From an uncultured Candidatus Bathyarchaeia archaeon (GTDB taxonomy: Archaea > Thermoproteota > Bathyarchaeia > 40CM-2-53-6): a stretch of DNA of 64,000 nt. The position numbers were made by a program, and so were the translations under genes. The stretch is from contig CAZRNA010000003.1 in assembly GCA_964601325.1 (NCBI GenBank), positions 4,629-68,628 on the forward strand, read 5' to 3'. The notes beneath the pieces were generated by a model. That model was not told the DNA's origin, did not search any database, and saw only the letters and a list, made by a program, of their open reading frames with translations. Positions 49,927 to 54,080 of this stretch are shown here, piece by piece; within the stretch, counting starts at the first letter, position 1; every line of letters begins with the position of its first letter.

Positions 49927-50271
49927 TTAGGGAAGTCGCTCGAACCTGAAGCCTTCGACGTCTTTTCCTCGGATCTTGCGGATATGTCCCCAGACTGGAC
50001 GAACTCTGTCTCCGATCTTGATCTCTTCGCTCAGAACTTGGCCTGTGACTCTAACCTTTCCGTCGAACTCGACTATAGCGAGGGTTAACGGCAGCTGTTC
50101 GATGCCTTCAGGCACCGTCCAAAGCCTCGTAAACGTCACGATCTTGCCTTCATTACTCAGGGGGTATTCTTCGAAGTCTTTTCCCTTGCATGAAGGACAG
50201 AGGAACCGTTTCGGATATGCGATCGCGCCGCACTTCTTGCATTTGAATCCGACAAACCTACTCTCTGCCAT
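49927..50271 (-). CDS. DUF35 OB-fold/zinc-ribbon protein (thiolase/HMG-CoA synthase scaffold)
   Basis: KCKKCGAIAYPKRFLCPSCKG zinc ribbon followed by an OB fold. Immediately downstream of the thiolase. Confidence 0.85.
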   Translation of the reverse strand: MAESRFVGFKCKKCGAIAYPKRFLCPSCKGKDFEEYPLSNEGKIVTFTRLWTVPEGIEQLPLTLAIVEFDGKVRVTGQVLSEEIKIGDRVRPVWGHIRKIRGKDVEGFRFERLP

Positions 50272-51423
50272 CTAGATTCTCTCCAGTACAAACGCCACTA
50301 TGTTGTTGGCGAATCCTCCTAAGTTGCAGGAGAAAGCTCGCTGGGCGTTCTTTACCTGTCGCCTGTCCGCTTCTCCTCTGAGCTGCCAGGTCATCTCAAC
50401 TATCTGAGCCACTCCTGTGGCTCCTACCGGGTGACCCCTCGCTTTCAGTCCACCGGATGGGTTTATCGGGAACTTCCCGTCGAGTGCAGTCACGCCGTCG
50501 CGAAGCGCCTTGTGCCCTGTGCCCTTCTCGAAGAATCCTGCGTCTTCACTTTCAACTATTTCGAGTATAGTGAAGGCGTCGTGTAATTCTGCGAAGCTCA
50601 TGTCTCTTGGTGTCGTCTTGCTCATCTTGAAAGCCTGTGCAGCAGAGACCCTGAGTGCCTCCAGTACCGCTGGATCTTTCCTGTCTTGTACGGCCATCCT
50701 GTCAGTCGCTTGGCCAACTCCTGCTATCCTGATGGGCGTGTCCGTGAATTCTCTTGCTTTCTCCGTCGCGGCTAGGAGCACTGACGCTGCCCCGTCTGTG
50801 ACAGGACAGCAATGGTACATCCGGATTGGGTCCGATATGATAGGGTTGTTCACTTCGGCCTCCGGAGAACCGTAGATTCCCTCTAGCGTTACCGGTTGCT
50901 GGATGTGGGCATACGGATTCTTCGAGCCGTTCAGGTGGTTCTTCACCGCGACGCGTGCAAGGTCCTCTTCGGTCACGCCGTACCTTTCCATATACAGTCT
51001 CGCGAGCATCCCAGCCAAGGACGGGAGCGTAACGCCATGAACGTATTCGGCCTCTATGTTGGTCATCGTGGCTATGTAGTCAGTTATTACTTCGCCCGGC
51101 ACGTGCCGCATCTTCTCTCCACCTGTGACGAGGGCGGTATCGTATAGGCCGCAGGCAATCGCACAGTAAGCGTTCTTGACAGCCGATCCTCCTGATGCAG
51201 GGCCATTCTCCACGCGGTCCGCTGCGGCCGGAACAAGCGCTAACTGGTCTACAAGTGCGCTCCCCACAGCTACCTGATGGTTCAATTCCCCGGCCAACAT
51301 GCTGGCCGCATATACTGCATCTATGTTCCTATCACCTGCGCCGGCATCCTCAAGTGCTTTGATGCTAGATTCGGTCATAAGACTGAGCAGAGTCTTATCG
51401 TCGTGCCTGCCGAACTTTGTCAT
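50272..51423 (-). CDS. Archaeal thiolase (acetyl-CoA C-acetyltransferase family)
   Basis: 383 aa. Thiolase fold with active Cys 'NAYCAIA' and C-terminal 'NPSGGLKARGHPVGATG'. Confidence 0.85.
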   Translation of the reverse strand: MTKFGRHDDKTLLSLMTESSIKALEDAGAGDRNIDAVYAASMLAGELNHQVAVGSALVDQLALVPAAADRVENGPASGGSAVKNAYCAIACGLYDTALVTGGEKMRHVPGEVITDYIATMTNIEAEYVHGVTLPSLAGMLARLYMERYGVTEEDLARVAVKNHLNGSKNPYAHIQQPVTLEGIYGSPEAEVNNPIISDPIRMYHCCPVTDGAASVLLAATEKAREFTDTPIRIAGVGQATDRMAVQDRKDPAVLEALRVSAAQAFKMSKTTPRDMSFAELHDAFTILEIVESEDAGFFEKGTGHKALRDGVTALDGKFPINPSGGLKARGHPVGATGVAQIVEMTWQLRGEADRRQVKNAQRAFSCNLGGFANNIVAFVLERI

Positions 51424-51466
51424 GCCGCAGCCTACAACAGAGACATCTCTCAGGTCTGCTCCCTCA

Positions 51467-52132
51467 TCACTGCTGAGATATCCAATCTAAGGGTGCGTTC
51501 TCAAACGTCGCAGCCTTCTTGAGCACATCATCAGGGACGGGCCTAGATCCCATCACAAGCCGGGGCTTAACCTTTTGATAGATGTCCCTAGTTATTACCC
51601 ATGCCTTGGCTCCGCCCAACTCATGCTGCACGCCAGGTCTGACCTGGAGTCCCCACTCCACTATCCACCGGCGAAAACCGATCGGACTCTCCGCCGTAAC
51701 AAGTATCTCTTCCGCTCCCAAGGTCTCCATGGAATGCTCATGTTTGGCTGCGAACAAGTGAGCTCCAACCCTGGCACCTCGTTTCAGAGCCGTCGTATGA
51801 TAACTTACGTGGGTCTTCTGATCGTACGCGCGGCTGTTGACGATTCCCGCCAGTTTTCCATCAACGATCCCGATGAGGCAGAACTCGTTCCTGACTCTGC
51901 GTCTGTACCAGCCCAGTAACTCAGCGTATTGTCTTGCCGCAACAATGTCGTAGAAGTCCCTCGACACTATTAGGAGTGGTGTAATCGCCTGAAGCAGTTT
52001 GGGGGCTTCCTCCCTCGCCGCCTCTCGAACGACCATGCGTTCACCGGTTGGGAGCAGAAGCGTTTTCGGAGGGTAGGGTTTCTTGGGAATGTCCCAGTCT
52101 ACTCCAAGTATGGACTCAATATCTTCGCTCAC
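51467..52132 (-). CDS. Conserved hypothetical protein (intact paralog of the 40762..41563 pseudogene), first gene of the thiolase operon
   Basis: 221 aa. No motif recognised. Shares a collinear core with the frameshifted copy. Confidence 0.5.
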   Translation of the reverse strand: MSEDIESILGVDWDIPKKPYPPKTLLLPTGERMVVREAAREEAPKLLQAITPLLIVSRDFYDIVAARQYAELLGWYRRRVRNEFCLIGIVDGKLAGIVNSRAYDQKTHVSYHTTALKRGARVGAHLFAAKHEHSMETLGAEEILVTAESPIGFRRWIVEWGLQVRPGVQHELGGAKAWVITRDIYQKVKPRLVMGSRPVPDDVLKKAATFENAPLDWISQQ

Positions 52133-52285
52133 AGTAAATTCATCGCGCTATGTGACCCGCCCTTTCATTATAGGCTTTGTCCCATATTGTGCGCAACAAC
52201 CGGTTTGCATGATAGAAGTGCGGATCATCTTCGTCTCAGTTGAGTTGGCCACATAACATGCTCCTGCAGATTCATTCCCTGCGAG

Positions 52286-52663
52286 ATGATGAGCCGACGC
52301 TCTTGTGAAGGCTCATCTCGTCACCACATGAGACTATTGCTTGATGTCAACGATTGGGACAGGGGCTTCACAATCGGCTTCATTGGCGGACTAATCGATA
52401 GTGACGGTCACATCCAGAAAGGGAAGCGTAACGGTCACTACGGAGCAATAATCACTACGAGTAGCGCCTCCCTTGGAGACCAAGTCCGAGACTTGTGCAA
52501 AGCTCAGCACATCAACGTGCTATGTCGCCTGGATCGTCGGGGAAAGCCTGACGAGAGACCTCGATACATCATACGTATTCCATCGGGCGATCTAAACGGC
52601 CTGTGTTCAGAGTTGCTGTGCATGAAACATGCGAGGTATCATGGTGGGCCGGGCCGGATTTGA
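52286..52663 (+). CDS. Single-motif LAGLIDADG homing-endonuclease-like protein
   Basis: 'GFTIGFIGGLIDSDGHIQKGKR' matches the LAGLIDADG consensus (ΦxGΦΦDGDG + basic). The 3' end overlaps the tRNA-Val gene on the opposite strand. Confidence 0.5.
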   Translation: MMSRRSCEGSSRHHMRLLLDVNDWDRGFTIGFIGGLIDSDGHIQKGKRNGHYGAIITTSSASLGDQVRDLCKAQHINVLCRLDRRGKPDERPRYIIRIPSGDLNGLCSELLCMKHARYHGGPGRI

Positions 52664-52732
52664 ACCGGCGACCACCTGCGTTTCCTGGATGGCTGTCAGG
52701 CAGGTATCCTAACCAGACTAGACGACCGGCCC
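52642..52732 (-). tRNA. tRNA-Val (anticodon GAC) with a ~13-nt intron at the canonical 37/38 site; CCA encoded
   Basis: Reverse complement: GGGCCGG-TC-GTCT-AGTCTGGTTA-GGAT-A-CCTGC-CTGACA[GCCATCCAGGAAA]C-GCAGG-TGGTC-GCCGG-TTCAAAT-CCGGC-CCGGCCC-A-CCA. Confidence 0.55.
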
Positions 52733-52816
52733 ACGGCTGCGGAGAATGGGTTCAGGAAACATAAAGATCCTTCGAGAACTACGGCGGTGGAGTATCCTAC
52801 CTTTCGGGCGTGTCCT

Positions 52817-53005
52817 TCACACGACTCTCATTCGGTTAACGTTCTTGTTCTGCCAAGAGTAGCGTCGAATTTTGCTCGACGCACCAAAGCCGCATGCGGC
52901 ACATTTCTTCTTCCTAATGTGATAGGAGTGTCGACCGCATCGGCGGCATCTAATGTGAGTCTTGCCTCGGCCTCGTAGCCCAAAGGAGGGCGTGCCCTTT
53001 CCCAT
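52817..53005 (-). CDS. rpl37e: 50S ribosomal protein L37e
   Basis: [41 protein letters not shown] is near-identical to the eL37 consensus. Confidence 0.9.
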
Positions 53006-53051
53006 TCTCGTCCACCCGCATGAGCAAAACAGAACAGGTATTTATGTCAAC

Positions 53052-53285
53052 CTAGCGACTCGGAGGCGGACTCACAAGCACCACGTTGTCGCCTCGCACG
53101 ATAATTGTTCCGATCTTCTTTGCGTTGTCTGGGTTCGTGATATCATCAGCGTCTTCAAGGACTAGGTTCATGTGTTGATCGTAACTGTAGAGCTTTCCCC
53201 TTACAGTGCGGCCCCCCTTGAGTTCGACCAAGACGACCTTGCCTAGGCTTTCCTCGAAAATCTTCGTGGCGACATCGGAAGACAT
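53052..53285 (-). CDS. Sm-like (LSm) archaeal protein
   Basis: Sm1/Sm2 motifs [29 protein letters not shown]...[11 protein letters not shown]. The start is taken at MSSDV (the ORF track begins 17 codons earlier). Confidence 0.85.
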
Positions 53286-53509
53286 TCTTTGTGTTCTCCG
53301 GTTGAAGTTGAAGTCTAAGCATTGAAACCCACACAATTTAAGGGTTAGGGTCTTGGATCAAGGTACAATCACAGAACTTTCTGGAAAACAAACTGGTTGC
53401 GCACGGAAAGGCGCATCAATGGGAGAAGAAAACCTCGAAAAGGAGAGCCCTCAAGTCCAGCGAGACAAAGCAACTGCTTCAGGAATTCAAGGAGAAGTTC
53501 CCAAGATTC

Positions 53510-53920
53510 ATGACTGATCCTCAGAGCAAACAGGCCGTTGAAGAGATCGTTGTCGAGAACGGAAAGTTGTTTCTCATCGACGACAAGCCCTTCGCGATCT
53601 CCACAGGCAGTGGACTATTTCCGAGCCTCTTGAATGAGGAATTGTTGAAGATACTTCCCTCGATCATAGTTGACATGGGTGCGATCCCACACATCTGTAA
53701 CGGAGCTGACATCATGAGGCCGGGGATTAAGGAAATTCACGGCGCCTTCGAAGAAGGCGCCGTTCTTCTTGTCAAAGACATTAGGTTCGGGAAACCGATC
53801 GGAATCTGCGTCGCGGAGACTTCATCCGAATCCATGCAGGCGATGACTAGAGGAAAAGCCGCGCGGAATGTCCATTATGTCGGAGACATGTTTTGGCAGG
53901 CCCTGAAGAAATCTGACTAG
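53510..53920 (+). CDS. PUA-domain RNA-binding protein
   Basis: 136 aa. C-terminal PUA-like 'GAVLLVKDIRFGKPIGICVAET'. The upstream in-frame segment also looks coding (see findings). Confidence 0.65.
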   Translation: MTDPQSKQAVEEIVVENGKLFLIDDKPFAISTGSGLFPSLLNEELLKILPSIIVDMGAIPHICNGADIMRPGIKEIHGAFEEGAVLLVKDIRFGKPIGICVAETSSESMQAMTRGKAARNVHYVGDMFWQALKKSD

Positions 53921-54080
53921 TTGAGTTTGTGTCAAATTCTAGTTGATTTCTTGGATCCGGCATACTTCACATATACGTGAGACTGCACACGTTCCTGCTA
54001 GGAACGGCTGGAACTCCTGAAGGTTTAAACTTGCGCTCTCGGCGTGTCTACTCCAGCCTGTAAGCTACTAGTGTTCTCCC

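Follow-up and report, generated by a model that had tools for sequence, protein, structure and literature searches.

A LAGLIDADG open reading frame that ends inside a Bathyarchaeia tRNA-Val(GAC) gene, and the likely cassette behind it

How does an open reading frame (ORF) with a single LAGLIDADG motif come to end inside the 3′ end of a tRNA gene on the opposite strand? The locus that raises this question lies in 64,000 nt of DNA from an uncultured Bathyarchaeia archaeon (GenBank assembly GCA_964601325.1, contig CAZRNA010000003.1, positions 4,629 to 68,628), to which we refer as the window, and consists of a 125-aa ORF running in antisense into the end of a tRNA-Val(GAC) gene. We consider it highly likely that this ORF is the decayed C-terminal half of an I-DmoI-like protein of ~258 aa, HEG1, from a ~0.87-kb mobile cassette specific to tRNA-Val(GAC) in Bathyarchaeia. 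The feature in the window is real but dead, being composed of a pseudogene fragment and an element-derived tRNA T-arm.

The open reading frame and its full-length relatives

The ORF and its relevant parts have the following window coordinates.

52286 to 52663 (+): ORF regarded as a truncated HEG1 remnant with the C-terminal LAGLIDADG domain only; ATG start, 125 aa, stop codon TGA at 52661 to 52663
52376 to 52429 (+): GFIGGLIDSDGHIQKGKR, ORF residues 31 to 48, the region holding the motif
52376 to 52411 (+): GFIGGLIDSDGH, the sole remaining LAGLIDADG motif, equivalent to motif 2 of the ancestral enzyme and an invariant block in three family alignments
52642 to 52663 (both strands): antisense overlap of ORF and tRNA, 22 nt (19 nt without CCA), containing the codons for HGGPGRI and the stop

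A first-pass annotation of this DNA had described the ORF as LAGLIDADG-like, and a true LAGLIDADG domain is indeed present, as Pfam LAGLIDADG_3 matched ORF residues 30 to 93 above its curated cutoff (E value, 9.5e-7; 29.4 bits against 22.5). Since the nearest homologue in a protein homology search had an E value of 1.4e-44, the match lies far beyond chance, and D40 of the ORF is the presumed catalytic Asp. An NCBIfam scan found no model matching the 125-aa ORF. A phmmer search of PDB with the ORF alone returned noise only, mostly antibody light chains, so that a family profile and a structure model were needed.

The first homology search with the window ORF recovered three proteins of 210, 206, and 141 aa. 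The two longer ones carry two LAGLIDADG motifs, and the ORF aligned only to their C-terminal half. Because all three end in HGGPGR[IT], which translates the antisense of the T-stem and acceptor 3′ strands plus CCA, every relative must read into the same tRNA end. Full-length HEG1 homologues (206 to 286 aa) contain the two motifs ..VGDGS.. and ..LIDSDGH.., with Asp conserved in both, and reading upstream in the fetched loci uncovered an N-terminal helix-turn-helix (HTH), which gives an ancestral protein of ~257 to 262 aa. A profile search extended the family to 53 members, some of which matched Pfam HTH_23 or HTH_38, and HTH and LAGLIDADG were the only kinds of domain that Pfam detected in family proteins. 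Only three other proteins in these searches had no N-terminal domain (P0038, P0048, and P0052, all rare singleton clusters), the rest being two-domain proteins, and GGPGR[ITN] was the C terminus of nearly all HEG1 proteins in which this end was complete.

The AlphaFold model of P0006, the intact 258-aa HEG1 protein of locus L041, had a predicted local distance difference test score (pLDDT) of 88.8 and a predicted template modeling score (pTM) of 0.85, and consisted of three N-terminal helices followed by two alpha-beta-beta-alpha-beta-beta-alpha domains. A Foldseek search of PDB with this model placed I-DmoI at the top (E value, 4.7e-9; target TM score, 0.71), followed by PI-PfuI, I-Tsp061I, and PI-SceI, with WhiA among the lower matches. 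The structural likeness to LAGLIDADG enzymes beyond the short motif that the first-pass annotation had proposed to look for is therefore found in an intact relative; the intact relatives have the two-domain LAGLIDADG architecture, and the window ORF has domain 2 only. Public records annotate family proteins as hypothetical, as “LAGLIDADG family homing endonuclease,” as “intein-encoded endonuclease-like,” or as “WhiA.” A scan of viral contigs yielded distant LAGLIDADG proteins only, with 22 to 37% identity over parts.

A cassette with a substitute tRNA end

The tRNA gene comprises the following features.

52642 to 52732 (-): tRNA-Val(GAC) with encoded CCA; by sequence comparison, a hybrid of a host-type 5′ two-thirds and an element-type 3′ third
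52653 to 52669 (-): element-type T-arm GCCGG-UUCAAAU-CCGGC (type A), which replaces the native GAGAG-UUCAAAU-CUCUC
52681 to 52693 (-): 13-nt tRNA intron GCCAUCCAGGAAA, after position 37, identical in locus L011, which is free of the endonuclease gene

Rfam matched a tRNA at 52645 to 52732 (-) with 55.7 bits and an E value of 2e-10, and the gene was read by hand as GGGCCGG-U-CGUC..GGAU-A-CCUGC-CUGACA[GCCAUCCAGGAAA]C-GCAGG-UGGUC-GCCGG-UUCAAAU-CCGGC-CCGGCCC-A-CCA, with the encoded CCA ending at 52642. Match and reading both agree with the earlier description of a tRNA-Val(GAC) with a 13-nt anticodon-loop intron, and the opposite-strand overlap with the ORF, described as about 20 nt, measured 22 nt. 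The end coordinate then given for the feature, 52732, marks the 5′ end of the tRNA and not the end of the ORF, and the element origin of the T-arm had been overlooked, the corresponding arm in L011 being GAGAG/CUCUC. The codons for HGGPGRI and the stop fall in the T-loop, the T-stem 3′ strand, the acceptor 3′ strand, and CCA, and the TGA stop is the antisense of the T-loop UUCAAAU.

ARAGORN called the window tRNA Gly(acc), which is wrong in view of the hand-read anticodon GAC (Val). Intron-bearing tRNAs were misassigned by this program (as Gly, Ser, Tyr, and others), and Rfam and hand reading were used instead. The minimum-free-energy fold of the unspliced pre-tRNA contained no cloverleaf and was uninformative. 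The 38-nt 5′ exon of tRNA-Val(GAC) is identical across all loci. Both the length (13 to ~27 nt in the window and L001 to L043) and the sequence of the intron are hypervariable, and intron type is independent of the presence of the endonuclease gene, one intron being common to the window and L011.

Loci for comparison came from a genome scan with the exact 38-nt 5′ half of the tRNA, using one genome per species, which gave 17 Bathyarchaeia loci, and from a protein-guided metagenome scan, which gave 20 further loci. The 10 genome loci free of the endonuclease gene (L011, L014 to L016, and L022 to L027) all have the T-arm GAGAG-TTCAAAT-CTCTC. Sites filled by HEG1 comprise the window, L001 to L010, L012, L019, and L028 to L043; the gene is always at tRNA-Val(GAC), and the T-stem beside it differs from the native one yet is fully paired. 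This stem is GCCGG/CCGGC (type A) in the window, L009, and L036 to L042 and GGTGG/CCGCC (type B; GGUGG in RNA) in L001 to L008, L010, L012, L019, L028 to L035, and L043. The presence/absence polymorphism predicted for relatives is thus found at tRNA-Val(GAC) as empty and filled sites.

The tRNA 3′ fragment TGGTGGGCCGGGAGAGATTTGAACTCTCGA was observed in L001 and L009, ~100 to 260 bp upstream of the endonuclease gene and in the same orientation as the tRNA, and every HEG1 locus with enough sequence contains a GAGAG-type fragment beyond the gene, at a distance of ~860 bp from the tRNA. The displaced fragment is composed of GTGGTC, the T-arm, and CCGGCCC, usually with CCA. Duplicated tRNA 3′ fragments, which the first-pass annotation had suggested seeking nearby, therefore exist in relatives, and a search allowing up to three mismatches found none in the window itself. 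Together, the ~860-bp spacing of the fragments and the pattern of T-arms across loci define the unit as a ~0.87-kb cassette in which the gene is accompanied by a substitute tRNA 3′ third, running from the end of the variable loop through the T-arm and the acceptor 3′ strand to CCA and overlapping the last seven codons of the gene in antisense. The cassette lies between the 5′ two-thirds of the host tRNA and the displaced native 3′ third with its native downstream flank.

Filled and empty sites correspond closely. L011 and the window are 95% identical from the tRNA rightwards and have the same 13-nt intron, but L011 has a GAGAG T-arm and no endonuclease gene. In L039 and L040, the displaced fragment and the 17 nt beyond it reproduce exactly the end of the tRNA and the adjoining downstream sequence at the empty site L024, with the homology ending at GACCAC, the variable loop, and the ACTACT that flanks the fragments of L036 and L038 is also the native flanking sequence in L023. 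T-stems of intact tRNAs are always perfectly paired, and several displaced fragments contain stem-breaking or loop mutations (such as GAGAA and TTCAATT), stem-breaking changes being expected of relics.

Intact HEG1 copies, with ratios of nonsynonymous to synonymous substitution rates (dN/dS) of 0.15 to 0.26 in seven pairs, are evidently under purifying selection. Many other copies are in decay: L010 and L009 contain frameshifts (of 1 nt in L010, and within the HTH in L009), L012 has stop codons in its HTH, the lineage of L042 and the window has undergone two deletions, and in L035 (1772 to 2900) an insertion of ~1.1 kb, with a gene for a 346-aa protein, interrupts HEG1. We read the C-terminal CxxC...CxxC of this protein as a zinc ribbon and the protein as TnpB/IS605-like. 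The occurrence of the cassette in two unrelated chromosomal contexts, L37e/Sm (window, L038, and L039) and PPDK...L38e (L001, L036, and L040), indicates that it is tied to the tRNA and not to a neighborhood. Between L036 (1 to 1542) and L038 (2251 to 3883), the cassette and left flank are 92 to 95% identical (94.6%), and the 5′ flanks of the two tRNAs have no mutual similarity, which suggests that lateral transfer or recombination took place recently, with crossover at the tRNA. Insofar as sequence comparison can establish them, the cassette architecture, the duplication of the target, the existence of empty and filled sites, the association of HEG1 with T-stem alleles, and the decay series are secure.

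The duplicated fragments might instead be att sites of an integrase-type element such as SSV or pNOB8, with the LAGLIDADG gene as cargo or bystander, although we regard this as very unlikely. Imperfect direct repeats such as these (~33 nt) at the 3′ end of a tRNA classically point to integration by a tyrosine recombinase (reviewed in PMC8371274), and the 3′ side of this tRNA is a synteny breakpoint, with 6.5 kb there in L016. What the repeats bound, however, is a constant ~0.87-kb unit with an HTH-LAGLIDADG ORF only and no integrase, and they differ from each other at 8 to 10 T-stem positions. The C terminus of the ORF is also encoded within the tRNA end, and the same architecture recurs in two unrelated LAGLIDADG families. 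Because no recombinase lies between fragment and tRNA, we conclude that the HEG1 cassette is not of the integrase type.

Truncation of the window copy

Two further features of the window mark the point at which the gene was broken.

52274 to 52306 (+): junction DNA absent from the intact gene, located in the gap between blocks shared with L042 and supplying the fortuitous ATG ATG start
52307 to 52317 (+): GAAGGCTCATC, an 11-bp repeat that occurs once here, at the deletion junction, and twice in L042

Comparison with intact copies placed the beginning of HEG1 homology in the ORF at ~52307. From this position on, the window has 96% nucleotide identity to the intact cassette of L041 and likewise to L042, a metagenome locus on a 34-kb contig, and the ORF has 93% amino acid identity to P0006, with the match starting at about residue 146 of that protein. 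L042 and the window are 95 to 96% identical over window positions 50000 to 52273 and 52307 to 54000, and between these two blocks L042 has 443 bp and the window 33 bp. The copies of GAAGGCTCATC in L042, at 2903 and 3340, are 437 bp apart and flank the N-terminal LAGLIDADG domain. Since the window retains one GAAGGCTCATC with the left context of L042 copy 1 and the right context of L042 copy 2, its N-terminal LAGLIDADG domain appears to have been lost through a 437-bp deletion between short direct repeats.

L042 is already without part of the HTH and everything to the left of it. In the window lineage, the left side of the cassette, comprising the native fragment and a portion of the HTH, would first have been lost, as in L042, and the 437-bp deletion between the 11-bp repeats would then have removed the N-terminal LAGLIDADG domain. 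This would have left a fortuitous ORF, together with the element-type T-arm as a permanent scar in the only tRNA copy of the locus. Only 8 or 9 nt in 345 differ between the window copy and intact copies, so the truncation is recent and the open frame is no evidence of function. The ORF is almost certainly a truncated HEG1 remnant and should be flagged as a pseudogene fragment in annotation, and the tRNA should be flagged as a hybrid. The notion of a complete, free-standing copy has to be given up, as the ORF is the C-terminal half of a two-domain enzyme with its ATG in junction DNA.

It is less probable again that the ORF encodes a functional free-standing protein with one motif, either an I-CreI-like homodimer or a DNA-binding regulator kept beside the tRNA. 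The frame is open, the motif keeps its Asp, and single domains of two-domain enzymes can in principle homodimerize, as is generally known. A 111-aa gene, P0091, whose length fits a start at Met15, is also publicly annotated. Against this, the ORF is exactly domain 2 of a two-domain protein, the break sits at the 11-bp-repeat deletion junction, and the start codons are in unrelated junction DNA. Among its relatives, only P0038, P0048, and P0052 are otherwise without the N-terminal domain, and with just 8 or 9 nt differences an open frame is expected by chance. P0091 (NCBI/ENA, from a 73-kb contig) belongs to the P0006 cluster, and a start at Met15 would correspond to window positions 52328 to 52663. 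Judged by length alone, the window fragment may therefore have been annotated as a gene in a public record.

An origin as the remnant of an intron-encoded endonuclease, with the ORF once inside a larger tRNA intron, is most improbable. In its favor, an intron is present in the tRNA, and the I-DmoI-like enzymes to which a structural kinship is seen are encoded by introns of archaeal rRNA. In all ~30 loci, however, the ORF is located outside the tRNA and reads into its 3′ end from the opposite strand, and the intron is 13 to 27 nt long, varies independently of the endonuclease gene, and is identical in the window and the endonuclease-free L011. Just as improbable is a WhiA-like DNA-binding protein domesticated to regulate the tRNA locus. 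HEG1 shares an HTH and two LAGLIDADG domains with WhiA, WhiA is among the lower structural matches, and one cluster member is annotated as WhiA. The HTH, however, is N-terminal and not C-terminal, the Asp of both motifs is conserved, and the gene is patchily distributed, near-identical genomes having empty sites, with duplicated targets and many pseudogenes. From the first-pass suggestion that the ORF is a remnant of a mobile intron or integrative element using the tRNA as target, we retain a mobile-element remnant that targets the tRNA; the intron (13 nt, with the ORF outside it and on the other strand) and integrase-type integration (the cassette being an endonuclease gene only) fall away.

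The neighboring genes in the window encode L37e, an Sm protein, and an archaeal PUA protein, and together with the relatives recovered in the scans they place the organism in the Bathyarchaeia. A 221-aa ORF at 51467 to 52132 (-), divergent from the remnant, is kept in L016 and L042 and had no match in an NCBIfam scan. Between this gene and the tRNA, L016 contains 6.5 kb of other genes. Synteny breaks on the 3′ side of the tRNA (window 52132 to 52642 versus L016 1289 to 7814 and L011 1 to 808), where L011 has unrelated DNA and the window and L042 have the endonuclease remnant alone.

Proposed mechanism, a second family, and known systems

A homing-cassette mechanism, modeled on established LAGLIDADG homing, is a likely explanation for these arrangements. 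HEG1 would cut an allele without the gene at or near the junction of variable loop and T-stem, which is the insertion point, and double-strand-break repair from a filled allele would copy the cassette in, using homology to the 5′ part of the tRNA at one end and to the native fragment and flank at the other. The 8 to 10 substitutions in the T-stem would keep pairing, hence tRNA function, while removing the recognition site and so conferring immunity. Because the last seven codons and the stop are inside the substitute tRNA end, the gene and its putative immunity determinant are inseparable by recombination and inherited together. The HTH probably adds DNA contacts or autoregulation, a speculative role.

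Several points weigh against this account. The association between allele and endonuclease gene is not absolute, since L021 (1 to 505) has a type-B T-arm without the gene in the 420 nt available and L020 (7902 to 8000) can be read only to just past the tRNA, where the locus ends; its T-arm is type A, and the downstream bases would read ..RLGGPGRN*. Translated in the HEG1 frame, the 420 nt of L021 are full of stops and contain no recognizable remnant. Recombination between CCGGCCCACCA repeats, deleting the gene, would explain scars such as L021, and recombination in GTGGTC would instead restore an empty native site. The case for T-stem-based immunity, which we place somewhat above an even chance, is one of correlation alone, and the endonuclease activity, cleavage site, and homing of HEG1 are properties that we infer from sequence. 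The 8 or 9 substitutions in the window ORF are too few to reveal relaxed selection. Finally, all data are metagenome-assembled sequences, in which some frameshifts could be assembly errors.

A second, unrelated gene encoding an HTH and a double LAGLIDADG protein, HEG2 (~308 aa; motifs VLGDGYT and FFDAEGC), occupies the same tRNA-Val 3′ end and is associated with the GAGAG T-arm. Copies were located as follows.

L037, 1157 to 2083: HEG2 copy between the HEG1 cassette and the tRNA
L041, 1119 to 2062: HEG2 copy to the left of the native fragment
L056, 4001 to 4927: HEG2 copy
L057, 4001 to 4930: HEG2 copy

Among 19 HEG2 relatives, 7 extend into the tRNA with the C terminus GGPGE[TIN], which the GAGAG T-stem encodes in antisense. 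In the orientation of the tRNA, L037 consists of a GAGAG tRNA, HEG2, a type-A fragment, HEG1, and a GAGAG fragment. L056 has a GAGAG tRNA, HEG2, and a type-A fragment, with a 16-aa C-terminal stub of HEG1, and L041 has a type-A tRNA, HEG1, a GAGAG fragment, a frameshifted HEG2, and a decayed type-A fragment. HEG2 has displaced a fourth allele, GATGG/CCGTC, in L057 to L059. At L057 3640 to 3700, to the left of a type-C fragment, we observed sequence resembling a decayed tRNA T-arm fragment (..CCCAATTTGAACCGTCG..), which may be an older relic layer.

HEG1 always displaces GAGAG (~10 independent loci), and HEG2 always displaces non-GAGAG alleles (4 loci). These opposite displacements suggest that each family homes into the allele of the other, and we give reciprocal invasion by HEG1 and HEG2 about even odds on this pattern. 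A comparable relation reportedly exists between I-HmuI and I-HmuII of phages SPO1 and SP82, related selfish intron nucleases at one site that each act on the allele of the other. Those are intron-encoded phage HNH enzymes, whereas HEG1 and HEG2 are LAGLIDADG families that apparently alternate at a tRNA T-arm and leave stacked relics.

Distant members of the HEG1 family (34 to 39% identity) lie upstream of, and on the same strand as, other intron-containing tRNA genes, with introns of 50 to 77 nt. Their layout is mirrored, a 5′ fragment of the same tRNA being found upstream of the gene.

L044, 454 to 1630 (same strand as tRNA): mirrored, 5′-end-replacing locus; duplicated tRNA 5′ fragment of 30 nt, identical
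L046, 2661 to 3910 (same strand as tRNA): mirrored, 5′-end-replacing locus; duplicated tRNA 5′ fragment as a 12-nt remnant
L052, 2417 to 3550 (same strand as tRNA): mirrored, 5′-end-replacing locus; duplicated tRNA 5′ fragment of 24 nt with one change

A broader proposal, that free-standing HTH-LAGLIDADG cassettes of archaea overwrite one tRNA end with a re-paired, self-immune copy, is in our judgment as probable as its opposite. In this way tRNA-Val(GAC) would have its 3′ end replaced and at least two other tRNAs their 5′ end, and the two families (HEG1 changing GAGAG to GCCGG or GGUGG and HEG2 changing it back to GAGAG) would each target the allele of the other. If this is true, the T-arm flips repeatedly and relics accumulate downstream of the tRNA, tRNA stems can undergo abrupt compensatory change by a nuclease-driven route, and there is a source for the orphan tRNA fragments and disrupted tRNA genes that have long been known from archaea such as Caldiarchaeum. 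A selfish nuclease gene could occupy an essential structural RNA gene without an intron by bringing a differently paired functional replacement part. Because the cassette carries such a functional re-paired part, tRNA stems can change by wholesale compensated gene conversion and not only by stepwise mutation. Orphan tRNA fragments and synteny breaks beside archaeal tRNA genes thereby acquire a testable origin, the opposing HEG1 and HEG2 families offer a natural system for homing-element competition, and both proteins are new putative long-target nucleases with paired cleavable and immune sites.

On the evidence of the structure model, the HEG1 enzyme groups with archaeal LAGLIDADG endonucleases of the I-DmoI type, yet it is neither intron nor intein encoded. 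I-DmoI, I-Tsp061I, and PI-PfuI share with it a monomeric pseudo-dimeric fold and two LAGLIDADG motifs, each with Asp. Enzymes of the I-DmoI type are encoded in rRNA introns or inteins, whereas HEG1 is free-standing, has an N-terminal HTH, and is only 16 to 18% identical to them. Tyrosine-recombinase elements of the SSV and pNOB8 types resemble the HEG1 cassette in targeting a tRNA 3′ end, duplicating that end, and supplying a functional one, but HEG1 differs in its 0.87-kb unit with a single gene, no integrase, and nonidentical repeats. In Caldiarchaeum subterraneum, tRNA-Thr(GGU) contains a 1.87-kb insertion that extends from a displaced tRNA 5′ fragment to about nt 27 of the intact tRNA and has one 813-bp ORF, for which a recombinase or a transposable element of plasmid origin was proposed (Sugahara et al. 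2012, PMC3293823). As described there, the layout and ORF size of this insertion match those of the mirrored loci L044 and L052, and homology may lie behind the likeness.

What is new here is a known type of selfish element at an archaeal tRNA gene, an architecture of which we found no description for archaeal tRNA genes. The open-access papers that we covered contained no account of an archaeal LAGLIDADG cassette overwriting tRNA ends, an absence that is not proof. By analogy, the closest counterparts are the mORFs of fungal mitochondria, in which a LAGLIDADG or GIY-YIG gene is accompanied by a foreign 3′ end of atp6, atp9, cox2, or nad3, as in Allomyces macrogynus and Glomus spp. (PMC3630166). 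As in the HEG1 cassette, a free-standing endonuclease gene occupies the 3′ part of an essential gene, a divergent substitute end is joined to the host 5′ part, and the native 3′ end is displaced downstream as a relic, with a hybrid gene and horizontal spread as the outcome. The displaced native 3′ end beyond the gene is found in the cassettes of relatives, and the window keeps the substitute T-arm only. Unlike mORFs, HEG1 targets a tRNA gene of an archaeal chromosome and not an organellar protein-coding gene, its substitute end has compensatory stem changes where mORFs have synonymous changes, and its gene, extended by an N-terminal HTH, is antisense to the tRNA and overlaps the tRNA 3′ end.

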